From Octopus vulgaris (taxonomy: Eukaryota): a stretch of 64,000 bases of DNA. This document shows, one piece after another, positions 7,389 through 53,246 of the stretch (positions within the stretch are counted from its first letter, which is position 1; each line of letters begins with the position of its first letter). The notes beneath the pieces were generated by a model that was not told the origin of the DNA, did no database searches, and saw only the letters and a program-made list of their open reading frames with translations. The stretch lies in the NCBI GenBank assembly GCA_951406725.2, contig OX597823.1:45384001-45448000 (forward strand). Reading direction: 5' to 3'. The translations under genes were made by a program, and so were the position numbers.

Positions 7389-7438
<50 letters not shown>

Positions 7439-7493
7439 GTAAGAAATATTGAATTTCTAAATCTCTCGTAGAGACATGTACGGTGGTGGGGCG

Positions 7494-7730
7494 ATAGAAT
7501 GGTTGTATACTGTCAATCTACCAAGAACATGACAGTAGGGGTACACCACCGCTGTATAGCCCTAGGAAGCATTGAACGCCTTCTGATAGCTTTGACACAT
7601 ATATAAGGACACAGGGAAAAAATGTGTCAAAGCTATCAGGAGGCATTCGATGCTTCCTAGGGCTATACAGCGGTGGTGTACCCCCCTACTGTCACGTTCT
7701 TGTTAGATTGACAGTATACAACCATTCTAT
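7494..7730. repeat. Inverted repeat, ~107-bp arms, ~21-nt spacer, between (TA)n tracts
   Basis: 7494-7600 is reverse-complementary to 7622-7730 with a few mismatches. Confidence 0.9.
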
Positions 7731-8199
7731 ATATATATCATTATACATGCATTGTGTGTGTGCATTAATGCATGTGTATAGGAAGTGAATGGGGTTTATA
7801 AATCCAGGCAGATATCTATAAAGCACTCAGTGTTAAACGAATATAGTTAAATATATCCAACAATCAGATACCAATAAATTCATATAGAATTAATATCCGA
7901 GATAATTCTTCGTGAATGACAAGTAAATCTAAATATCACTTAGTTGGAATTTCAAGAATAAGAATGGATAAAATCACATCTTCAATTGGTGATTACACAA
8001 TACATTACCAACTGTTATTTCTTTTATGCCAGAATATTTAAATAGAGAAAAAAAAGGTATGAGATATCAGTCAAATTGATGTATCCAAAAATATATGCCA
8101 ACATAATGTTATGCAGGCCATCCAAAATTAGTTAAATTCAAAGTGAAATAACAAAATATCTCTAAAAGAAGAGCACATACAAAAAGAACATTAAGAAGT

Positions 8200-13504: not shown

Positions 13505-13966
13505 CTGGGAGATGAGACAAAAAGATTGCTTCCTTTCACAATGGTATTTCCAATGGTTTGATCCAATTAGAGCTATCAGTAAAGAACTGAACATTCCATA
13601 CAAACTTAACGTTTTCCCTCCAATTTTTGAATTCAAATAAAGCAAAAATATATTAAAACATTTAGCTTTTTGAACTGCTGAATGATTTACAGAACATTTG
13701 CACTTGATTCTATTATATATTTCATGCTGAGTTATATACATGATAAAGAGATTACCCTTTTCTCATAACTCATAAAAGAATTTCATTTTCATGCACACAT
13801 GTGCACCAAACACTAGGGAAATTTGTTTTAAAATATCTGCCTGCTAAGCTAACAAACCAGACAAGTATTGAGCCAATGAGCGAGCCTGTATACAGTCACA
13901 TTACTTGCTAAAAAGAATAGCCCAATTTCCCTTAGATCATATTCTATCATTTTAAAGGAAGAAATA

Positions 13967-14132
13967 CTGGCATGGGTTGGACAGTTTGACAGGAGCTGGT
14001 CAGGCAGGAGCCTGCACCATGCTTCTGTGTCTGTTATAGTGTAGCTGTAAAACCCATGCCAAAAACAGACACAGAAGCATGGTGCAAGCTCCTGCCTGGC
14101 CAGCTCCTGTCAAACTGTCCAACCCATGCCAG
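13967..14132. repeat. Inverted repeat (69-bp arms) formed by a retroposon tail
   Basis: 13967-14035 vs 14064-14132, followed by a (GAY)n tail. Confidence 0.88.
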
Positions 14133-14489
14133 CATGGAAGGAGGATGTTAAAAGATGATGATGACAACGACAACGACGACGACGACGATGATGATGATGA
14201 TGATGATGAATGCTGTTGTTCTATAAACCCAAGAGGTGAAATTGCATGGCTTAGTGGTTAGAGTATTTGGCTCACAATCATAAGGTAGTGAGTTCAATGC
14301 CCAGTGGTGCATTGTATCCTTGAGCAAAATACTTTATTTCACATTGACCCAGTCCCCTCAGCTGGCAAAAATGAGTTGTACCTGTAATTCAAAGGCCCAG
14401 CTTTGTCACATTCCCTGTCATGCTGAATCTCCTTGAGAACAACATCAAGAACAAATTTGAACAAGAAATATGATGGCCACATATAGAAC

Positions 14490-20106: not shown

Positions 20107-20158
<52 letters not shown>

Positions 20159-20172
20159 TAATGATAATAATG

Positions 20173-20215
<43 letters not shown>

Positions 20216-20221
20216 ATGATG

Positions 20222-20273
<52 letters not shown>

Positions 20274-20286
20274 TAATAATAATAAT
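20107..20286. repeat. (TAA)n microsatellite
   Basis: Direct reading; further (TAA)n at 20703-20755, 20969-21033, 22925-22995 and 23880-23965. Confidence 0.95.
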
Positions 20287-20702
20287 TCTGCTCAAAAGTT
20301 TCAAAAATTTCAAAAATTTGCTTGTCAGTTGTTCAACCTTAACTAGTTGAGCACGTCCGTTACTGGCTGACAATATGAGTATCTCTGATCATGAGTAAAA
20401 GTAGTGGAGGAGCATCATAGATATGTGTTGAGGAGAATTCTTTAGAGCTTGAATAATTCACCTCTGGAAGCATGGGTATTTCATGCAATATCCTTAAATA
20501 ACCCTTATTCACAACCTGAAGAAAATTCTAACTGGGCCCCACTTGCAAGGTCATGTGCTGTTTATCTTGATGTTGCACACATATGGTTGTGATGCATATG
20601 CCTGGTGTCCCCTTATCAAACAGATAGTTATGATGGGTATACTGAGCTTCATATATTTTACCCCAGTGTCACTTTGATGGCATGCACTGCTCCCTCACTC
20701 AA

Positions 20703-20757
<55 letters not shown>

Positions 20758-20968
20758 GTTTCAGATTTTGGCATAAAGCCAGCAGTTTTTGGGGAGGGGC
20801 CAAGTCAATTAAATCGACTCCAGTGCTTACTGGTACTTAATTTATAAACCCTGCAAGGATGAAAGGCAAAGTCAACCTCAGTAAAATTTGAATTTGTATC
20901 TCAGAGACAGATAAAATGCCACTAAGCATCTTGCCTGGCATGCTAATGATTCTGCCAGCTCACCGCTC

Positions 20969-21025
<57 letters not shown>

Positions 21026-21430
21026 TGATAATAATCTTTTCTACTGCACAAGGCCTGAAATTTTAGGGAAAGGATTGAGTTAATTACATCAACCCCAGTG
21101 CATAACTCATACTTATTTAATCAACTCTAAAGGGATGAAAGGCAAAGTCAATCTCAGAATAATAATCCTTTTTACTATAGGCAAAAGGCCTGGATTTTCT
21201 GGTGAGGGAGAGAGTTGATCACATCGACCCCAATACTCAACTGGTACTTAATTTATTGACCTTGAAAAAATGAAAGGCAAAGTTGACCTTGGCAGAATTT
21301 GAGCTCAGAATGTAAAAAAAACAGAAGATATACCATGAGGCATTTTGTCCAACAGTTTAACAAATAATAACAAGAAGAACAAGAAATAAGCCTTTATTTA
21401 TGGGTGTATCACATTTCTTGCATGTGTGTA

Positions 21431-22407: not shown

Positions 22408-22937
22408 GCAATAACACTTGATAAGATCTGATATAGAGCAAAGAGACCTCTAGATTGGCTGCAAGTAGTAGTGGTACAGAAAGCATGTTTTCAGGTTATA
22501 CTTTAAGACAGATGCAACAACAAAGTTGGTCAATTTCTGTATTGCCATGCATTAGATAATAAAAATGGAGATGCTGTGTAATCCATCCAACCCAAGCCAG
22601 AATAGAAAAATACACACCAAATTATTATGCTGATGATGATATATTACAGTCCTAACACCAAACAAGAGACTATGATACATTCCAGAAAAATACTTTCAGT
22701 TTACAAGGAATGTAGAGATATAAAACATAAACAAAGATGAAAGGCTGAAGCTGCACTGCAAGCATGAGTCTTTACAGAGAAGATGGACTGATGGCATCCA
22801 GAAAACAAATAACAACCACTTAACAAAAATATGACATGGCGGTAACTGCAGAAACAAACCTTGTATCTGTCAACTATAGTATCATGAGTCTAAGTTCATG
22901 ATGCTTTGAAACTTACAAAAAAAATATAATAATAATG

Positions 22938-22992
<55 letters not shown>

Positions 22993-22998
<6 letters not shown>

Positions 22999-23880
22999 AA
23001 AGAAATATTACAAGTAACTGCAGAATATGTGGAGATGGACAAGAAACATAAACGCAAAAGAAATAGACAAAGAAAAATCCCAGCAATGGTTGAGAAGCTC
23101 AGGACTCAAAGCAGAAACAGAGGGATTTTTAATTGCAGCACAAGACCAAAGCCTCCCCACCAGAAATTACCAAAAACATGTAATGAAAAGAAATATTACA
23201 AGTAACTGCAGAATATGTGGAGATGGACAAGAAACAATAAATCATATTATCTCTAGCTGCCCAGTCCTGGCTAAGAAGGAATATATTCACAGACATGACA
23301 GAGTTGGAACCTACATACATTGGAAGCTATGCCAACATTATGGAATAACAACAGAAAAAAGATGGTATAGGCACACACCAGAAAAGGTCACAGAAAACGA
23401 GAAAGCAACCATACTCTGGGATATGCCGATACACACAGATAGAGAAATTAAGGCCAACAGACCAGATATAGTTGTCAGAGATCATGAAGAAAATAAATGC
23501 TTTTTAATTGATGTATCAATACCGGCAGATGACAACGTGTCTCTAAAAGAAATGGAGAAACTCTCAAAATACAAAGACCTGGAAATAGAGGTAACTAGAA
23601 TGTGGAATCTGAAAACAGAAACAATTCCTATCATAGTAGGTGCATTAGGCATGATAAAAAAATATTCAGACAAATACATAACAAAAACACCAGGACTTAC
23701 AAACACATATAACATACAGAAAATTGCACTACTAGGCACTGCCCACATCCTACGCAGAACACTTTCCATACAATAACCATCAGAGCATCACAACAAATCA
23801 CAGCACATACCCAAGGCACACAGAGCTGCGCTCGGTAGTGAAGTGAAAGCACGCTATAAAAATAAAAATAAAACTACTGA
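22993..23880 (+). mobile_element. 5'-truncated Dong/R4-clade non-LTR retrotransposon inserted in (TAA)n
   Basis: Open ORF 23027-23776 with CCHC knuckle CRICGDGQETINHIISSC, RHD motif and restriction-like endonuclease RPDIVV...IDVS...K.SKY; short 3' UTR; (TAA)n on both sides. Confidence 0.9.
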
Positions 23881-23901
23881 ATAATAATAATAATGATGAT
23901 A

Positions 23902-23965
<64 letters not shown>

Positions 23966-23967
<2 letters not shown>

Positions 23968-24439
23968 GTATAAAAGATGGGCTACAGCAAATATTCTGCT
24001 CAATACCACAGATTTGCTTGTCAGTTGTTTGACCATAACCAGTTGAGCATGTCCCTTAGTGGCTGACGATATGTGCATCTCTGATCATGAGCAGAAGTAG
24101 TGGGGGAGCATCATAGCCATGTGTTGAGAGGGATTCTTTGGGGTTTGAATAGTTCACCTCTGGAAACATGGGTGGTTCTTTCAACATCCTTAAACAACCC
24201 TTATTCAGGGACCTTTTGAGCGGGATGGGCTACTCAACCTGAAGAAAATTCTAACTGGGCCCCACCTGCAAGGTCATGTGCTGTTTATCTTGATATGAGA
24301 TCACCATGTCGCGCACATATGGTTGTGATGCATGTGCCTGGTGTACCTTTATCAGACGGGTAGTCATGATGGGTATATTGGGCTTCGTATATTTTACCCC
24401 AGTGTCACTTTGATGGCATGAACTGCTCTCTCACTCAAT
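23966..24439 (+). mobile_element. Non-coding repeat embedded in (TAA)n (second copy ~20286-20703)
   Basis: Both copies end actgctc(t/c)ctcactcaa and run into (TAA)n, with (TAA)n upstream too. Confidence 0.75.
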
Positions 24440-24559
24440 GATAATAATAATAATAATAATAGATTTTTTTAAATACCCCTGAAACATTCCAAATCCAAGA
24501 ACACCCTAATTATGGTGAATGATTCTCAAAGAAAAGAGGAGATAATTTCTAGAAATTAT

Positions 24560-27230: not shown

Positions 27231-30200
27231 TTTGATAATGAAGAGGAGAGTAGAGATTTTATTCACATCCGAAAACCTCTACATATGTTTCAGCTGCAGT
27301 GACTGCACATTGCTTTGTATACAATTATGCTTTTTAGTTGTTCCATTTTCATCAAAGGGTTCATCACTCACAACGTTTTCAAAGTGAACTGATTCAAACT
27401 GATGCATCCTGCATCGATATTCAGTTAAAGGTAATAACATTACTATTTATATCCAATGGAATGCTGGTTTTATAATCACCTCTGCTTGTATTACAGTTGT
27501 AGGATAGTTTTAAAAATGTTTATTCAGATTTCAATTAATTCTAACAGTTTTGTTTACATGTTGCTGTATGGAGTACATTATTTATTTAGAGGTAATTTAT
27601 TAGGTTGTCAAGAAAGTTCTTGCGTTTTTAACCTTTAAGTTCAGATGCATATGTCTTGGCTCAAACAAAACTTTATTAATTAAAATAAACACCATCAGAA
27701 TCAACACACTTTTGCCAATGCGAAACAAGTTTATTTATGCCAGTAGCGTAATGATTCTGTGTTCTGGTGGCGATGAAGTTGTTGAAGGCGTGTTTGGCAT
27801 TGTCTTGGTTTTTTAAGAATTTCTCATGCAGGAAGTTGCCGAGATGCTTGAAAATGTGGTTGTCGGTAGGTGAGAAGTCTGGTGATTATGGCAGGTGAAG
27901 CAGAGTTTCATAGCCCAATTCGTTCAACTTCTATAGAGACAGCTGTGCGACCTGTGGCTGAGCATTGTCGTGGAGAAGAATTGGTCCTTTTCTATTGACT
28001 GATGCTGGCTGTTGTTGTTGGAGTTTCTTATGCATTTCATCCATTTGCTGACAGTACTTCTCCATCATAATTATTTCACTTGGATCCAAAGAACTGAGAT
28101 GGATGAGACCAGCCACAGACCACCAAACAGTCACTATGACCTTCTTTTGGTGCAACTTTGGCTTTGGGAAGTGCCTTGGAGCTTTAATGGCATCCAACCA
28201 CTGAGCTGAGCATCGCTGGTTGTAGTAAAGAATCCACTATTCATCACAAGTCACATTCCAGCTGTGAAATGGGTCATTCTTGTTGCGTAAAAGAAGGGAA
28301 GATGAATACCCATTTCTCAAGTATTTTTGTTTTTCCAATCTCTTTCAAGTGGTTGGAAATTGTTGTATATGTTATGTCTAATTCAGAAGCAAGCTCTTAA
28401 ACATTTGTGCATGGATTGGCTTTGACTAAGGCTCTTAGTTGATTGTTGTCAACATCCGATGGCTGACCACTATGCTTATCATCTTCAAGACTCTCATCAC
28501 TCCTATGAAATTTCTTGAACCACCATTGTGCTGTACATTCATTAGTGTTTCCTGAGCCAAATGTATCGTTGAAATCTTGAGCTGTTTCAGCAGTTTTTTG
28601 GCCTAGCTTGAACTGTAATAAGAAAATTGTGCGAATTTGCTTTTTATCCATGTTGTATTCACCGTTTCAGAAAAACAATGGCCTAATTATTCAAAAAGAA
28701 AAAGAGCAACATGATTAGATAGAACGAAAAACAGGCTTTAAAATGATATATAAAGTCAAAGTAATTTAATGAAAATTAATTTGAAAATACATCATTTAAA
28801 ATCAAAATTAAAAATTCCGCAAGAACTTCCTTGACAACCTAGTACTTATTTTGGGTTTATATCCTCAATCAATATTGTTATCATCATTATTATTATTATC
28901 ATTATTATTATTAGTAGTAGTATTAGTATAAATATCATTTATTTTTTTAATTTATTGTAAGTAGCATAGTTACTATAGATGATAAGTTGTGTTTATTTAA
29001 ATTGTTTAAAAGTATATTTTCTCAAGTGTGGACAACTTAAAGCCTGTTCCCATCTAGTGTTTAACAGTAAATTTGGAAATGAACATTTGGTACATTTTTT
29101 TCCACATTTTACAAGGTTTTGTATTATTAATTATTTCCTAACCAACCGAATATGCTTTGTTACAATCTTTTAGTGCCCAAATTAGTTTACTAAGGCTAGT
29201 AGTATTCATTTTGCCCCTATATCTAAACGAATTTAAATGATTGGCAATTCTTTGTTTAATATAACATGAGCTAATTCTGTATGGAAGTAGACCCTATACT
29301 CTGAGGTAACCTTACATCTGTATACAATATTTTAATACTTACAATTAGAGTTAAGCAGGCAAATACTGTTCCTTGAGCAATCGCATTTGATAGTTCTTTT
29401 ACTTACATTAATAGTTTCCTCTTCAGCTTCACTATCTTTTAAGCTATTACTCTTTCCCACATAGATAACATTCTGAGTACTGTGCTTTCTAGGATTCACA
29501 CCTTTGAGGATAATGCAGGAGTTTGTTTAAGTACCTTCCATTTTATTAGTTGTCAAACCATAGTTCCTATTCTGATACCTAGTTGGGTTACTTATGGTTT
29601 GGTCATCATGTTGGCATTATTGCTATTAATTGATCTATAATTGTTATTCTGTTTACTATTATTAAACTGGTTAATCTATTAGCCTTGTGTGCTGCTATAA
29701 TATGTGCTAGATTTCTGCTATTAGAAAAAGCTAGTCTAAATCTATGTTTATAAAATATTCTGTAGTATTTACTGTCTTTTGGAAAATGTTTAACCAATGC
29801 CAAATAGAATAATTTAGGTATATTGGAAATTATTTGTTTTCCAAAAGGAATTATATACCACTTGATATTGCTGGAAGTATCTATGTTATTGTGGTATGTA
29901 TTTCTACCTAAGCTTTTTGTGAAAGTGTATTACCTATTTACCTGGTTTTTATTCTGGCATTGGGTTTGTTTGCTGTTGTATTTGTCAGTTATTTGTGTAG
30001 TACTATTAGCAGAAATTAAATATTGGTTGCCTTCCCTATTTGAATGGGATTTCTTGTTAGGTCCATTCTTATCTAAGTTACTTAGTACTTTATTTGGCAC
30101 AAATTCATGTAAATTTTGATGAAATTGCAATGACTAGAATGTATAATTGTTTACAAAGCAAAGTGCAGTCACTGCAGTCAAAGCATATGTAGGTCAGATG

Positions 30201-30280
30201 TATATACTGCAGAAAACTTTTAAATATAGAAGTATTTGGATGTGAATAAAATCTCCACTCTCCTCTTTATTATCAATGTT
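27229..30280 (-). mobile_element. Decayed Penelope-like element with inverted pseudo-LTR, interrupted by a mariner
   Basis: Minus-strand peptides KHFPKDSKYYRIFYKHRFRLAFSNSRNLAHIIAAH (29606-29803), CLLNSNC..KNIVYRCKV and IWALKD..KCTKC resemble the PLE RT C-terminus and GIY-YIG endonuclease; ~27229-27362 and ~30111-30280 are inverted homologues with degenerate hammerhead motifs. Confidence 0.68.
27600..28842 (-). mobile_element. Near full-length mariner (Hsmar1/cecropia-like) with pseudogenised transposase
   Basis: 25-bp TIRs TTAGGTTGTCAAGAAAGTTCTTGCG (27600-27624 and 28818-28842, 2 mismatches); TA on both flanks; ORF pieces MDKKQIRTIFLLQFKLG...WWFKKF...SGQP, HQKKVIVTVWWS, ILLHDNA, HLP*SPDFSPTDNHIFKHL with stops and frameshifts. 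Confidence 0.93.
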
Positions 30281-30484
30281 AAAAAAATACTGTGTAGAAT
30301 TTTTGAAGGTTTGAATAGGAACTTGGAATTACCTGAGTGAAGTTACCAGTACCAGTAATAGTATCACTTTCTAAGACTGAGTACTATAAAATGAACCATT
30401 GTTGATAGCTGGCATCTAAACCAATTTAAAAGATAATATGGTACTCACCAGGATAACTTATCTCTTTTATACTCTCTCTCTCTT

Positions 30485-40849: not shown

Positions 40850-41178
40850 AATGGAGAGCTAAACTAACATCAGGTCAAGATAGGTTAGCTGAAGTCAGCA
40901 TAGGTAAGGGAATATTCCAAGGTGATACACTTTCACCACTGTTATTCATGATTGCTTTTATCCCTCTTTCATTGACCTTGGGAGAGGCTAAATCTTGCTA
41001 TGAATTTAGCAGAAATGAGAAAATAAACCACCTCCTGTTTATGGATGATCTGAAATTATTTGCCAAAAGTGAGAAAGCTTTAGATTCATTGGTTCAGACT
41101 GTTTGAGTTGTGAGTGATGACATTGGTACAGAATTTGGAACAGATATATGTGAGATGCTAGAAATAAGGAGAGGAATA
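40850..41178 (+). pseudogene. R4/Dong-type reverse transcriptase fragment
   Basis: Frame from 40861: KGIFQGDTLSPLLFMIAFIPLS...INHLLFMDDLKLFAKSEKALDSLVQTV*VVSDDIGTEFG (RT motifs QGDxLSP and FMDD), one stop. Confidence 0.85.
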
Positions 41179-41179
41179 A

Positions 41180-41800
41180 AAGGTCGATTTCATTGCGATT
41201 GAAATGCATATCACAAATATTGATTCGTTGTGTTAAATGAATCTCTTTCAATTTATGTGGAACCCAAATATTGAGCTTCTTAATGAGTCCAAGACATTTT
41301 AAGTGATTTTCAATTGCTGAGTGTGATACATTTAACCACTTTGCAATCTCTTGCACAGTTATATGACAATCAGATTCAATTATGGCTTTGATTTGGTCAT
41401 CATCAACTTCAGTTAGTCAACTAGAATACTGGTCATCTTTGAGTGAAAAATCTCCAGAACAGAATTTTTAAAACCATTTCTGACATGTGCATTCTGTTAA
41501 GCAATCAACATCATAAACTTCACATATCTCTTTGTGAGCCCTCAGCAGTTCTCTTGCCTTTACAGAAATAAAAAAGCAAAATATGGCAAAAATGTTCGTT
41601 TCTGCTCTCCATGTTAAAATTGACACTGAACTAAGATTTGTAAACAAAATTACGCACAAATTTGCTTCCAAAATAAGCTAAAGGTAATGGTTGTCAAATG
41701 TCAAAAGGGAAAAAATCATAACATTGAAAAAATCATTCAACATAATCATAACTCTATCTATTTGTGAGAAACGAAATTACTTTCTAGCCAAAACCCAATA
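41180..41800 (-). mobile_element. Mariner 5' half nested in the R4/Dong remnant
   Basis: Peptides RAHKEICEVYDVDCLTECTCQKWF and EIAKWLNVSHSAIENHLKCLGLIKKLNIWVPHKL (WVPHEL motif); TIR-like gaaattactttctagccaaaacccaata ending near 41800. Confidence 0.82.
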
Positions 41801-47628: not shown

Positions 47629-47937
47629 CTGGACAATAATAAAAATCAAAAACTGAATCAATTGCCAAAAAAGCAAATGCAATTATAGACCTTAAAACTT
47701 TTTGCTGTCTCAAGGATTTTTTTTGGTAAAAGAATATATAACATTAATCCATATAAATTCCATCGCAGGCCTTGACCAAAGCTACCTGGATCTTCAATGT
47801 TTTTAAAAAGTTGCTTACTCTGCTAGAAGTATTTTATATTTACCTGAAATACATAGTTTGTATCATCATCATAGTTTAAAGTCCGCTGTCCATGCTGGCG
47901 TGGGTTGGTCAGTGTGACCAGAGCTGGCAAGCTAGGG

Positions 47938-48101
47938 GGCTGCATCAGACTCTAATCTGATTTAGCATGGTTTTTACAGCTGGATGCCCTTCTAATGCCA
48001 ACCACTTTGTATAGTATGCTGGATGCTGTAAAGTGGTTGGTGTTAGGAAGGGCATCCAGCTGTAGAAACTATGCTAAATCAGATTGGCGTCTGGTGCAGC
48101 C
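47938..48101. repeat. Inverted repeat (~70-bp arms) formed by a retroposon tail
   Basis: 47938-48008 vs ~48030-48101. Confidence 0.8.
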
Positions 48102-49278
48102 AGACTCTAGTCTTTGAATATGTTATGATCGATTGTATTTAATATAGGGATAAACAGCTACAATTTGTCCTTGTGAACAATAAATTTTGTATCATTTCAG
48201 ATCATAAACACATTTATGTGTGTATACATAAAGGTTAATATTCTCAAACTTCTCCACTCTGCACTGGTCAATACTAAAAATGGCAGAAAGTACCAAAAAA
48301 AAAAGGCAATTGGTATTTAAGTTCCAACTAGTCAGGATTAAATAGCAAATAATCTTCTCTTTGGTTATTGAATATGAACTTTACAGCAGGATTCATGATT
48401 GCCCCAATAATCTCTTTACCAAGTTTTAAGTGAGGGTCACATGTACTAAATATTAAATATTATGGCAGTAAGCCTCATTATAAAAGATAAAATAGAAAGA
48501 GGTGGTCAGAAAGTCAATGAAAGGTTAAAGTTGGAGTTCAATCCTGACCAAGATACTGGACATCTGTGGTGTTTTAAATCAGCACAGGCAAGATGAGGGA
48601 TGTGTGATGTAGACCACTGTTAAATATTTAATCTGCGCTGTTTATAGATAATTTGAATTTTTCCTCACCACATTATGTATGGTGCCACTATGCTGGTTGT
48701 TATTCATATGCTAATATATGCAAATCATATGACTTTTCCAGATACCATCTAAAGTAATAAATGACTGAAGTAAAGAAGCCTTCTTCACAACATATAGCAT
48801 TATGTATATTCCAACTTGCAATCCTATAATTATAAATGATGTAGTAATCAAAGATATTTAATGAAACCCTTAAAATATTAACAAACTTTTAATTACAAAA
48901 CTAAACAAAGAATTAAAACAGAAATAGGAAAATATCATGTTGAGTTATAAGTTGCAATATATTCTGGCAACTTATTTGCTTTATTCAAGTTACATCTAAC
49001 TCAACTTCACATTCAAAGTAGAGGCCATCATGTTGCACTGTCTGAAGTCACCTTTCTGCTAATTCTTTGATCCCGGGTTGATATTACTTCTTGTTCTTTG
49101 AAATGAAGAACTCTTTCACTTTAGCTTCCACCTCATCTTGGTTGATGAAGCGTCATGAGTGCAGAAAGTGAGCCTTGGATGAGAACTTTGAATGCTTGGT
49201 TGCTTTTGTTGTAACTTGACAAATAAAGCATATAAGTTATAGAATTAAAACACTAACACAAGTAAACTTATATACCTA

Positions 49279-49313
<35 letters not shown>

Positions 49314-49314
49314 A

Positions 49315-49388
<74 letters not shown>

Positions 49389-49614
49389 TATATATAACTA
49401 ATGTAGGATAAAATTTTTTTCCCGAAAAAAATTTTATCAATGGCCAGCATATCAAAAAATACCTTTAAAGGTTAAATTTATAAATAATTTACAAAATATG
49501 GGCAAAAGAAAAATTCTAATGCCAAATATGCCGAAAAAAAGACAAAATTGTCAATAACCATTATAATTTATGCGTCTCGAAATAAACTGATAGAAATTTC
49601 TAAAAAATCCGTTA

Positions 49615-49675
49615 TTACCGTATTGGTCCCAATTTCGGTGTTAATTCATAAGAATTTTCCCCTCCTCAGCAATAA
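49615..49675 (-). ncRNA. Type I hammerhead ribozyme (core intact, one stem II mismatch)
   Basis: Minus strand reads ttattg CTGAGGA gggg aaaattcttatgaattaa cacc GAAA ttgg ga ccaa TA cggtaa; stem I ttattg/cggtaa; AUA triplet. Confidence 0.8.
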
Positions 49676-50144
49676 ATACGTGAGATATAAGTGAAATACT
49701 TACTCATACCCATGGAAAAAGCAAGCACGAAGTCCTGAGCAGACCTAAGTACCCCAAATATATCCAAAATAGAAAATCTTCGGCACATCTCGAGACACGT
49801 GTGATTTGAACTAGAAACTTTCACAGAGTGAGAGAATTCGGAAGTGAACACTATTAAATTTATAACTAATGTAGGATAAAATTTTTTTCCTGAAAAAAAT
49901 TTTATCAATGGCCAGCATATCAAAAAATACCTTTAAAGGTTAAACTTATAAATAATTTACAAAATAAAGGCAAAAGAAAAATTCTAATACCAAATATGCC
50001 GAAAAAAATACAAAATTGTCAATAACCATTATAATTTATGCATCTCGAAACAAACCGATAGAAATTTTTTAAAAATTTCTAAAAGGACTTAGTGCTTGCT
50101 TTTCCCATTGGTATGAGTAAGTATTTCACATATATCTCACATAT

Positions 50145-50205
50145 TTATCGTTGAGGAGGGGAAAATTCTTATGAATTAACCCCGAAATTGGGACCAATAC
50201 GGTAA
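50145..50205 (+). ncRNA. Inverted copy of the same hammerhead, core C3->U (probably inactive)
   Basis: ttatcg TTGAGGA gggg...cccc GAAA ttgg ga ccaa TA cggtaa; stems perfect but first core base mutated. Confidence 0.7.
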
Positions 50206-50329
50206 TAACGGATTTTTTAGAAATTTCTATCGGTTTGTTTCGAGATGTATAAATTATAATGGTTATTGACAATTTTGTCTTTTTTTCGGTATATTTGGCA
50301 TTAGAATTTTTCTTTTGCCCTTATTTTGT

Positions 50330-50372
<43 letters not shown>

Positions 50373-50374
50373 AT

Positions 50375-51247
50375 ATAACTTTTTAAATAAGAAAATGAAG
50401 AAAATGTATAAAAATTTATGTACTGATATTTTTATTTAAAGACATTCAAATTCATTTATAGAAACTCCTACATACAGCTATTTCTATACCAAATTCTTTA
50501 ATTTTGGAAATAAAATTCCATATTAGAAACCAGTGAATTCGGTATATCCTCAGGAAGTCATTTAACAATGTATAGGCTAACCTATGACAAACTATGTAGG
50601 TAAAAACTGGTAATAGGTGGGTTCTGTTTGGGTTTACTTTATACATATCAATTGTGTATTTGCATAAACATTGATTGATGTAGCAATTTTGGATGCAGTT
50701 GGATAGAATTTGATATGATATATTTTGTTAATCTGTAGTATTATTGACAGGCATATGCTCAACGAATTGATGTGTCTAGCTGTTCTCTCTTTAACAATCA
50801 ATATATAACATTCTCCTTTATTCACTCATTTTATCTAGCATTCTTTTTCTCTCAATAATGTCTATATCTTAGCTATCATAACACCATCAATGAACTATTG
50901 TGTATCATATTGGCATGAGCAAGGATGTGCTGAATATGTTTATTTTTGTGTATATGTGGTAATGAAGGTTTCTATGGAACACTTGCATTCAGAAAAAAGA
51001 CACACACTTCTGAGTTTAGCATAGGTTAGCCTACATATTGTTAAATAACTTCCTTTTGAAATTCTCCTTAAGGATATACCCAATTCACTGGTTTCAGATA
51101 TGGAATTTTATCTCTGAAATTAAAGAATTGGGCATCGAAACAGCTGTAGGTATGAGCTTCTATGTATAAATTTGAATATCTTTAAATAAAAACATCAGTA
51201 CGCAAATTTTTATCCCTTTCTTCAGTTTCTTATTTAAAAAGTTTTAT
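50375..51247. mobile_element. Penelope-like 3'-end remnant with ~220-bp inverted arms
   Basis: ~50375-50592 and ~51013-51247 are diverged reverse complements, each with a hammerhead remnant; lies between (TA)n tracts. Confidence 0.6.
50473..50553 (-). ncRNA. Decayed hammerhead ribozyme of a third family (inverted partner at ~51066-51150, + strand)
   Basis: CTGAGGA, 12-bp stem II tataccgaattc/gaatttggtata, GAAA, palindromic stem III tagctg (cagctg in the partner), TA; stem I not pairing. Confidence 0.6.
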
Positions 51248-51365
51248 TTAAATACCTATACTAAACTAAATACTAAACTAATGTACTTGTTTTTCTCTGA
51301 ATGTTGGTATAAATAGGATGCTCACATTTTTTAAGGGACTTTAATTCTTTGACTAATTAAGTGAA

Positions 51366-51402
<37 letters not shown>

Positions 51403-51849
51403 AAGAGATAGCTATGACCAGTCTATGGGATTACTCTGGGTTTTATGTCCATAAAGTGCTTAGCTTTATGACATCTTTATGGACATGAGGCCCAGGGTAA
51501 CCCCACAGACTGGCCATAACTATCTATATCTAATTACTCTACTGCTCTATAAGTTAGTGTCTGCTTCTCTTTAGGATGTATGATTTACTGCCAAGCCTTC
51601 TTTTTTCTATCAAGGGTTTATATGCCCCTTTATTAGACTATTTTCCTTAGTAATTGTATAGTGATCGCCATAAGTTTTAAGCTTATACAGAAATACCATT
51701 ATTATTATTTACAGGATTGTAAAAACAGCACCATATAAAAAACCATTTACACCGAAAGCATATATATATATATATATATATAGTAGTAACAGAAAAAAGA
51801 AATTTTGATTATCCCTACGTGGAGATATATATATATATATATATATATA

Positions 51850-52550
51850 TACCAATTAAGGACTGAACACGAAAAGTGGACAGTCAACAGACGTCTATAT
51901 CTAGCATGTTGACTGTCCACTTTTCGTGTTCAGTCCTTAATTGGTATATATAAATATTTTAATCTTCGGATTCTTTTTAATATGCTAGACCACTGGTTTT
52001 AATTGACTAATATCAATTTCTACCCTTAATTAATTTTTAATATAAAATATATGTTCTTAAGCCGATAAATTGACTGCTGCTAATTATTAGCTGCTGGCTG
52101 GTTTTTCGGGTCTCAGCGCGCCAAAAGTAAAGGCATTTGAAAGATACATTCGAACTTAATCGGTTGTACTGTATGCATGCGAAACTCCGGTATCGTTTTT
52201 TGCATCTAGTCCAGCAAATTATGTTCATAACAGACTGTGCTGACGAAGTTACAGATATCCTTGTGATATTAATAACTGAAACTGATCGGTACACAGGTGA
52301 TTATTTCATTTCGTATATTTTCATTTGTCTTATTTATTGCTTTGGTTTGTGCTGAATTTTATTTTATTTGAGAACATAATCTTTGTGGAGAATGGCGATT
52401 TGACGTCTATATCTAGCATGTTGACTGTCCACTTTTCGTGTTCAGTCCTTAATTGGTATATATAAATATTTTAATCTTCGGATTCTTTTTAATATGCTAG
52501 ACCACTGGTTTTAATTGACTAATATCAATTTCTACCCTTAATAAATTTTT
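51850..52550 (+). mobile_element. Non-coding hammerhead-bearing element: 512-bp period direct repeat with short 5' inversion, (TA)n-flanked
   Basis: ~140-bp identical repeats start at 51890 and 52402 (gacgtctatatctagcatg...); 51850-51889 is the reverse complement of ~51908-51947; hammerhead at 52235-52296. Confidence 0.82.
52235..52296 (+). ncRNA. Type I hammerhead ribozyme (intact core)
   Basis: Stem I ctgtg/cacag; core CTGACGA 52240-52246; stem II agtta/taact with inner atatc/gatat hairpin; GAAA 52278-52281; short stem III with palindromic gatc loop; GUA cleavage triplet ending at 52291. Confidence 0.88.
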
Positions 52551-53129
52551 ATATATATATATAAATATATATATACAAATATGTATATATATGTATGTGT
52601 ATATATATATATGTATGTATGTCTATATCTATATATGTGTTTATGTATCTAGATATATATATATCTACATGTATATGTATGTATGTATCAATCTATCTAT
52701 CTATCTATATATATATATATATTAGGTAGAAAATATTTTAGTGGGGGAACGCATGTGTTTGGATATACACAGAAAGAGAAAAGAGATGAAAACACAAGAT
52801 TTGTTTTACAGAATTAAGGAGTATATTATAGTCATATCTTTATTATTTGGACTCTACTCCTTAGGCCTGTAAAACAAATCTGTGATTTTTCGTCTTTTCT
52901 CATTCTGTGTATATATATATATATATACAGTCCCCTCTCATCTCCTCTGTGAGTCCCAATATCTGTAGATCTTTTCTGATGTTATTCGCTATAGTAAAAC
53001 TGTTTGCAGTTATCCGATAACAACAAAATCCATCAACATGAATAGTCAACTAATGGCTGATACATGTTTTATCTATCCCAACACCCACCTCCTCCAAAAC
53101 TGAACAAACAGGAAAAGAATTCATTCTAC

Positions 53130-53246
53130 CTTTTCAGACCAATGTTGCCAGGTTCCCTGCTCAGATACAAGGTATTCAAAAATGGTATTGTCATCGTCAA
53201 CATCAGGTAGTGAAAGAGAACAATTGGTCTTTATAAATTCTTCCAG
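53130..53246 (-). CDS. DNAH5: Dynein heavy chain exon 3
   Basis: LEEFIKTNCSLSLPDVDDDNTIFEYLVSEQGTWQHWSEK; ttacAG/GTagaa; 117 nt; TIFEY...W.HW dynein motif. Confidence 0.92.

Follow-up and report, generated by a model that had tools for sequence, protein, structure and literature searches.

What kind of element builds a row of inserts with inverted arms, set side by side between (TA)n tracts, inside a single intron? The question is raised by a locus of Octopus vulgaris where five such inserts lie within 3.66 kb of one intron of a gene for a DNAH5-like axonemal dynein heavy chain. The window analysed is the whole stretch of 64,000 nt (64 kb) at positions 45,384,001 to 45,448,000 (forward strand) of contig OX597823.1, assembly GCA_951406725.2, and all coordinates refer to it. 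A preliminary description of this DNA had located at least five inserts here, those called A to E in what follows, and gapped self-comparison recovered all five at the same places. In our judgement the stack very probably represents five independent insertions of non-coding retroelements, mobilised by the (TA)n-targeting enzyme of a Penelope-like element (PLE) that most likely belonged to the Hydra clade. The same description had read the inserts as Penelope-like, which is supported in A, B and D by partial tandems, inverted 5' copies, sense hammerhead motifs, a depth weighted to the 3' side in D and (TA)n ends, and in C and E by anatomy alone. Statements about the genome as a whole are indirect, being drawn from this one window plus public contig sets.

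Anatomy of the stacked inserts

Insert A follows a (TATC)n/(TA)n tract that forms the left border of the stack (49269–49396, microsatellite scan). Its main copy (49397–50076, minus strand), whose 3' end abuts (TA)n, consists of a 468-nt unit (49397–49864) and a 5'-truncated partial tandem of 212 nt (49865–50076), visible as a direct repeat (49387–49608 / 49855–50076) with a period of 468. Head to head with it lies an inverted copy of 253 nt (50084–50336, plus strand), which ends ~87 nt before the main copy's 3' end, where an internal TA-like site gives way to (TA)n; the inverted arms (49473–49736 / 50084–50347) are 94% identical. The (TA)n tract at 50334–50377 (microsatellite scan) separates A from insert B, which has a left arm (50378–50593, minus strand), a 420-nt middle without coding match that is itself a low-copy repeat (50594–51012), and a right arm (51013–51247, plus strand). 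The inverted arms of B (50360–50593 / 51013–51260), ~235 nt each, show 80% identity, and the middle is joined to the right arm in other copies too. Between B and the next (TA)n there is a spacer of 118 nt (51248–51365), either host DNA or an old B tail, which is single-copy in the part testable by reads (bin 51293–51398).

Insert C (51406–51759, plus strand) begins at a (TA)n(GA)n tract (51366–51405, from the sequence and the microsatellite scan) with an inverted arm of ~56 nt (51406–51461), followed by a short loop and by a main copy that ends on (TA)n; its orientation was inferred from contig depth alone. The palindrome at its head (51400–51531, 78% identity) has a folding z-score of −11.7. 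Two (TA)n tracts (51760–51851) then flank a 42-nt spacer of unassigned origin (51783–51824). In insert D, a short inverted arm (51839–51889, minus strand), arranged as a fold-back with a 17-nt loop and ending at an internal TATATATA, precedes a main copy (51890–52551, plus strand) made of a 150-nt partial tandem and a 512-nt unit with its 3' end on (TA)n. The inverted arms of D (51839–51889 / 51907–51957) span 51 nt, and its direct repeat (51890–52039 / 52402–52551, period 512) is 99% identical. A tract mixing (TA)n, (TATG)n and (TATC)n (52550–52722, microsatellite scan) leads to insert E (52723–52914), a palindrome (52763–52914, 75% identity, folding z-score −11.1) with a one-sided extension of 40 nt (52723–52762) to (TA)n. 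A (TA)n tract read from the sequence (52910–52927) closes the stack on the right. The inverted arms lie where they were first placed, with the refinement that C runs to 51759 and E reaches out to 52723.

The five inserts lie side by side, none inside another, and their families are mutually unrelated (best E 0.03–0.04 over 11–36 nt); self-comparison found no further copies of them elsewhere in the window. All five carry a head-to-head inverted copy, with a polarity that can be read from hammerheads in A, B and D alone. A partial tandem, or pseudo-long terminal repeat (pLTR), left by a 5'-truncated upstream copy spans 212 nt of the 468-nt unit in A and 150 nt of the 512-nt unit in D, and none was seen by self-comparison in B, C or E. 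One arm extends beyond the other in A, C, D and E, so that fixed ends defined by symmetric terminal inverted repeats (TIRs) are lacking and these four have a one-sided tail, judged in E from a single copy. C and E are thus probably not symmetric MITEs (miniature inverted-repeat transposable elements).

Hammerhead motifs, coding capacity and abundance

The preliminary description had reported hammerheads of three families with outward-facing 3' ends, and type I motifs were indeed found in the unrelated families A, B and D. The core letters CUGANGA, GAAA and UH together with three helices are present in family A (49621–49669, minus strand), with a short, near-palindromic helix III; in the left arm of B (50553→50469, minus strand), with a helix II of 12 bp; and in family D (52240–52291, plus strand), with helices of 5/5/4 pairs and GUA. 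A second family A copy (50151–50199, plus strand) has one core mismatch, and the hammerhead of the right arm of B (51068→51148, plus strand) is decayed, with two. Motifs in both arms of A and B point outward, and the hammerheads of A, B and D are in sense orientation, 94–260 nt from the 3' end. Helix III is short and closed by a loop of 0–2 nt, except in the left arm of B, where it has three pairs and the loop is longer. As monomers the three short helix III segments hardly pair, and they form self-dimers at −13 to −14 kcal/mol. At 50151, 51068 and 51070 the letter that prevails among the best 40 of 411 rows of family contigs is the canonical one of the core, and at 49639 the prevailing letter restores a pair of helix II. 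We regard the A, B and D motifs as putative type I hammerhead ribozymes. A descriptor written post hoc from motifs already seen, which misses both B motifs, gave three matches in the 3.66 kb and two in the remaining 60 kb; of 500 dinucleotide shuffles, 465 contained no match, 34 one and 1 two, and none contained three. A hammerhead candidate in C was dropped, as core letters are missing from both arms.

No open reading frame joining an RT (reverse transcriptase) of the telomerase-like kind to a GIY-YIG domain, the mark of an autonomous PLE, was found in the inserts. Comparison by tblastx with a decayed PLE frame of the same window and two further homologue searches gave no match either, B having been compared with sequence databases in two of its six frames. 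As the inserts encode no detectable protein, they are not classed as autonomous PLEs, and they appear to be non-autonomous and retrozyme-like. Two features of B noticed by eye were discarded: a GIY-YIG-like motif in a minus frame, whose only match was a spurious one to a fish repeated-LMBR1 membrane protein, and a Hydra-type C-terminus in a plus frame, unsupported by Pfam, word search or tblastx. The decayed frame itself lies at ~28990–30480 (minus strand), with (TAT)n on one side and (TA)n/(GA)n on the other, and shows by eye marks described in passages of PMC8557442 for the Hydra clade (a CxCX5C linker, and CxxC and CxH near the C-terminus); it has no Pfam or homologue match. It suggests that TA-targeting autonomous PLEs were once active nearby.

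Among RNA families, the Rfam matches at the locus were chance miRNA-like hairpins only, and ARAGORN predicted no tRNA in 49200–53000. The loose ends of C-family contigs (51560–51600) contain a short hairpin that resembles by eye a tRNA T-arm and that this copy has seemingly lost. Family motifs searched for in two tallies of viral contigs gave 0 and 0 matches, and a 17-mer family motif found at 36 metagenome loci was attributed to chance, none of them aligning beyond 35 nt.

Abundance was gauged from three public contig sets with three organism labels (X1, which may be the source sample, X2 and X19), compared over 49385–52560, a range that stops short of E; the depths are sums over contigs and not copy numbers. 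In X1, pieces identical to the window, and thus specific to the locus, have a depth of 36–49, and the families reach 66k–485k (A), 11k–408k (D), 4k–107k (C) and 0.1k–1.1k (B). Over the three sets, depth exceeds that of locus-specific pieces by a factor of hundreds to ten thousand in A, C and D and of up to some tens in B, so that A, C and D are high-copy repeats. Depth over the 3' part of D is ~20–35 times that over its hammerhead part, and in X2 there are 22 contigs that pass at 52044 from D into (TA)n; a 5'-truncated retroelement ending on TA would be expected to show both. In the C family, contigs cross the palindrome end (51526) by 47–52 letters and depth climbs from 4k to 9k and 107k, a rise of ~25-fold toward 51716. 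What had looked like a gap behind the palindrome thus proves to be repeat sequence too, and C is read as the fold-back head of a 354-nt insert that ends at the 51760 tract. A gradient of this kind, pointing to 5' truncation, is not clear in A or B.

Insert B is real and shared, since near-identical pieces with three organism labels bridge all three of its junctions: 50393–50735 (X1, 0 differences), 50393–50902 (X2) and 50389–50902 (X19) on the left, and 50882–51067 (X2, 2 differences) and 51071/51100/51169–51353 (all three runs) further right, among the best 24 of 27,611 pieces listed. In X2 and X19 the B allele is 15 letters longer, with 10 substitutions over 50393–50902; the left arm of B in the window lacks 15 nt that the right arm holds, probably by the same deletion. 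No contig spanning the centre of A, C or D was seen among the pieces listed, and no empty allele among the best 15 of 106 joints.

A number of results weigh against part or all of the retroelement interpretation. Neither Pfam on six frames nor a word search found RT or endonuclease in the inserts; scans found no hammerhead in C and E; and four family motifs had no match in the compared portion of the Craig 2021 supplement (PMC8557442). Rfam reported no hammerhead family at the locus even at E<=10, the hammerhead fold lies 1.4–6.3 kcal/mol above the minimum-energy fold in all four motifs tested, and the folding z-scores of the hammerheads are modest (−1.1 to −3.1). Nor is the density of TA tracts significantly raised over the rest of the window (scan P 0.35 for 6 of 30 merged tracts; P 0.12 for 7 of 31 in a second tally). 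The long middles of A (~340 nt) and B (~420 nt) do not call for a fold-back. One inversion junction of A (49828/49937) has in X2 and X19 a depth ~10 times that of single-copy sequence, and the junction between the B middle and its arm recurs in copies of 88% identity; some inverted units may have been copied or amplified whole.

Proposed formation of the mirror arms and possible renewal of the tract

Where the mirror arm meets the microsatellite, the inserts tend to follow one rule. In A, D and E the arm halts at an internal TAT/TATA, from which (TA)n continues; in C it ends at a TCT-type site and passes into (GA)n, and B is ambiguous. The same rule is seen in a sixth TA-anchored fold-back, far from the stack (7437–7738; arms 7494–7730, 87% identity), one arm of which ends CTAT into (TA)n and in which scans found no hammerhead. 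The tally over six inserts is therefore four clear cases plus C and the ambiguous B, against a background in which TAT/ATA begins at 8–10% of positions. The other arm extends on one side to its own (TA)n by ~87 nt in A, 90 in D, ~230 in C, 40 in E and 57 in the sixth insert, and the arm starts are ~10–25 nt apart in C, D and E.

The inserts differ in divergence. Differences between repeated parts amount to 1/150 and 0/44 in D, 10/204 and 14/250 in A, 27/202 in B, 8/54 in C and 11/61 in E, so that arm divergence ranges from 0.7% (D) to 18% (E). If the parts were identical at insertion, these inserts span a wide range of ages, and one small region has been used repeatedly, at different times.

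Passages on PLE biology offer a frame for these observations. PLE insertions are built as partial tandems, to which an inverted 5'-truncated copy and a tail confined to one end are often added (PMC8557442, PMC8969392, PMC3846280); the inverted pLTR is shorter than the direct one, the tail is optional, and palindromes at the junction have been read as self-priming (PMC3846280). In published work the PLE endonuclease nicks both strands of AT-rich DNA and its RT begins at sites inside the RNA, from which a tail on one side results. We propose that a PLE enzyme would nick the (TA)n tract and copy an RNA, usually stopping early. The mirror arm would arise in the course of insertion; the simplest route is that the new DNA folds back on itself, through loops of ~10–25 nt in C, D and E. 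An internal TA-like microhomology would then link the arm to the remaining half of the tract. In such a scheme the tract would be split and not destroyed, each insertion leaving two targets, and later families would land beside earlier ones and not within them.

The main competitor of the fold-back step is double priming, in which both nicked strands prime reverse transcription on two RNAs or tandem units, from two start sites, and the complementary DNAs join mid-way. This would differ from the L1 kind of double priming, where the inverted part is not known to duplicate the remainder. Its basis is the purified PLE protein, modelled as a dimer, which uses two internal RNA sites and can both cleave and extend each strand of AT-rich DNA (PMC11167929), and it suits A and B, whose arm starts lie far apart; the self-dimers of the short helix III segments also speak for it. 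The closely spaced arm starts of C, D and E are, however, improbable for two independent truncations, and the private differences of the three A copies (4, 3 and 2 in 112 columns) do not separate the models. We consider double priming somewhat unlikely, and retain folding back as the simplest account. A mixed-class pile, with C and E (perhaps also B) being TIR DNA transposons that likewise target TA, either MITEs or SaTar-like Mu-like elements (MULEs), seems to us improbable. C and E are palindromic, flanked by TA and free of hammerheads, plant SaTars form arrays of this type, the ends of B are nearly symmetric, and E lies outside the contig comparison; yet C-family contigs run past the palindrome end with mounting depth, E has its one-sided extension to its own (TA)n, and both B arms bear hammerhead motifs. 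Far less credible still is an origin of the inverted arms in faulty assembly or library preparation at TA repeats, as one might suspect from the 99–100% likeness of the D copies and from the missing contigs across the centres of A, C and D. The arms of A, B, C and E differ by 5–18% with private changes, and the B junctions are bridged in three runs, of which X2 and X19 come from other studies.

Whether the tract renews itself as a landing pad is a separate matter. The preliminary description had proposed such renewal, noting that Penelope-like elements are known to occupy simple repeats. A (TA)n preference has been published for Hydra and cephalopod Naiad families, including Octopus families (passages of PMC8557442). 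Within the stack, five of the six TA-anchored inverted inserts of the window fall in 3.66 kb (P 2.7e-4), and five of the 13 local inverted repeats of any kind (P 0.037); the first count excludes seven SINE-like repeats (SINE, short interspersed element) that the second includes, and both P values are post hoc because the window came from a scan. Seven of the eight inverted repeats outside the stack are presumably SINE pairs or fold-backs, six of the regions having been viewed. Tight SINE-like hairpins at 13964–14135 and 47938–48101 (84–87% identity) have no flanking (TA)n, and fold-backs may thus occur in other retroposons too.

The stack could also be the tail of a random draw among many TA-seeking copies, or stem from long or several starting tracts, with no renewal at all. 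The window offers 30 TA tracts, local density is not significant, the P values are post hoc, and the spacers of 118 nt and 42 nt inside the pile mean that the inserts need not all stem from one tract. On the other side, outside the pile a single TA-anchored inverted insert was found, touching 2 of 24 tracts, and a toy urn model of 25 tracts and six inserts puts the probability of five in one lineage at 1.1e-3 with renewal and 1.7e-5 without, a ~70-fold favour for renewal over uniform tract choice. A draw without renewal is a possibility that we take seriously while leaning against it, and a self-renewing TA tract is plausible as the landing pad.

Host intron and relation to known systems

All inserts lie in one intron of 5.5 kb (47629–53129, minus strand; GT at 53129, AG at 47630) of the DNAH5-like gene, minus-strand exons of which are present in the window. 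The placement in a single intron, already suggested by the preliminary description, agrees with the GT..AG ends and with flanking exons that map to consecutive parts of DNAH5: the exon at 53130–53246 aligns weakly with residues 2520–2543 (E 0.27), and the following exon (from 47628) matches 2546–2595. The window has 35.6% G+C and plentiful microsatellites. The pile is selfish and, in a large intron, probably neutral, and no host function is suggested for it. A second microsatellite-linked array with another repeat unit is seen at 20107–21035 and 23856–24461, where short un-nested repeats are strung between (TAA)n tracts. A 5'-truncated non-LTR retrotransposon also lies between (TAA)n tracts (22926–23966; 252-codon frame, zf-RVT E 3e-6), which we assume to be Dong/R4-like. 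Fragments at ~49040–49200 (minus strand), 27931–28236 and 41039–41416 resemble by eye pieces of a mariner transposase.

Among known systems, Hydra-clade PLEs such as Hydra-1_Obim and Penelope-13_HM come closest. Passages of PMC8557442 mark 25 of 27 listed Hydra families, including Hydra-1_Obim, as (TA)n, describe Hydra-clade hammerheads as sense, type I, with a helix III of 3–4 pairs and a 1–3-nt loop, and report a 5'-truncated inverted copy in Penelope-13_HM. The inserts share with this clade the (TA)n siting, a sense type I hammerhead that has a short helix III and lies ~100–200 nt before the 3' end, and the 5'-truncated inverted copy at the 5' end; the agreement that would specifically indicate the Hydra clade lies in siting and hammerhead build alone. 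As Naiads lack canonical hammerheads, the enzyme was probably of the Hydra clade. In contrast to these PLEs, an RT-endonuclease frame is not detectable in the inserts, the non-coding units of A and D measure 468 and 512 nt, and five families are stacked. Canonical PLE insertions (passages of PMC3846280 and PMC11167929) show the same partial tandem, shorter head-to-head inverted pLTR, one-sided tail and junction palindrome, but the extensions here are 40–230 nt compared with 30–40 nt published, and target-site duplications are unreadable inside microsatellites.

Animal retrozymes of the non-LTR kind, which have been proposed to be non-autonomous PLE derivatives (passages of PMC7229834 and preprint 10.64898/2026.07.22.740005), share with the inserts non-coding, low-GC tandem units and a type I hammerhead. 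The units here exceed the ~300–390 nt cited and amount to 1.3–1.45 per direct run with one hammerhead, whereas inverted arms and (TA)n siting are absent from the retrozyme passages. The at least two consecutive complete-hammerhead units by which Li et al. recognise an active retrozyme, as given in those passages, are not found at this locus, the partial tandems of A and D stopping before the hammerhead. A close parallel for the arrangement is that of the SaTar arrays of guayule and rice (passages of PMC5907723), in which unrelated non-autonomous elements are strung together by (TA)n and none is nested in another. SaTars, however, are Mu-like DNA transposons with symmetric terminal repeats, and the inserts here are asymmetric, 5'-truncated animal retroelements, of which A, B and D bear hammerheads.

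Each ingredient, from inverted pLTRs, tails, hammerheads and (TA)n preference to non-autonomous derivatives and TA-linked plant arrays, is already published. Searches of the open-licence literature, a scope outside which most subscription journals and Repbase fall, found no report of (TA)n-linked arrays in which PLE or retrozyme families are mixed, and none of octopus hammerhead families beyond Craig 2021; passages of the O. vulgaris repeat paper PMC13282606 do not mention hammerheads. The three hammerhead-bearing non-coding families and the two hammerhead-free ones are apparently undescribed so far.

The locus is a compact case for the junction rules of these elements, with a mirror arm that ends at an internal TA-like site and loops of 10–25 nt. 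The choice between fold-back and double priming is a live point of PLE integration, and thousands of family copies are likely. Some palindromes that are flanked by TA and carry a MITE annotation may be stumps of PLEs. More tentatively, one (TA)n-targeting PLE enzyme might in this animal lineage serve a whole guild of non-coding parasites, both hammerhead-bearing (A, B and D) and hammerhead-free (C, E and the insert at 7.5 kb), and by integrating through a fold-back closed at a TA microhomology might double its target with each event. If so, SaTar-like un-nested arrays of retroelements would be built genome-wide, introns would be seeded with long hairpins of graded age, and the arrays would record how PLE inversions and tails form.

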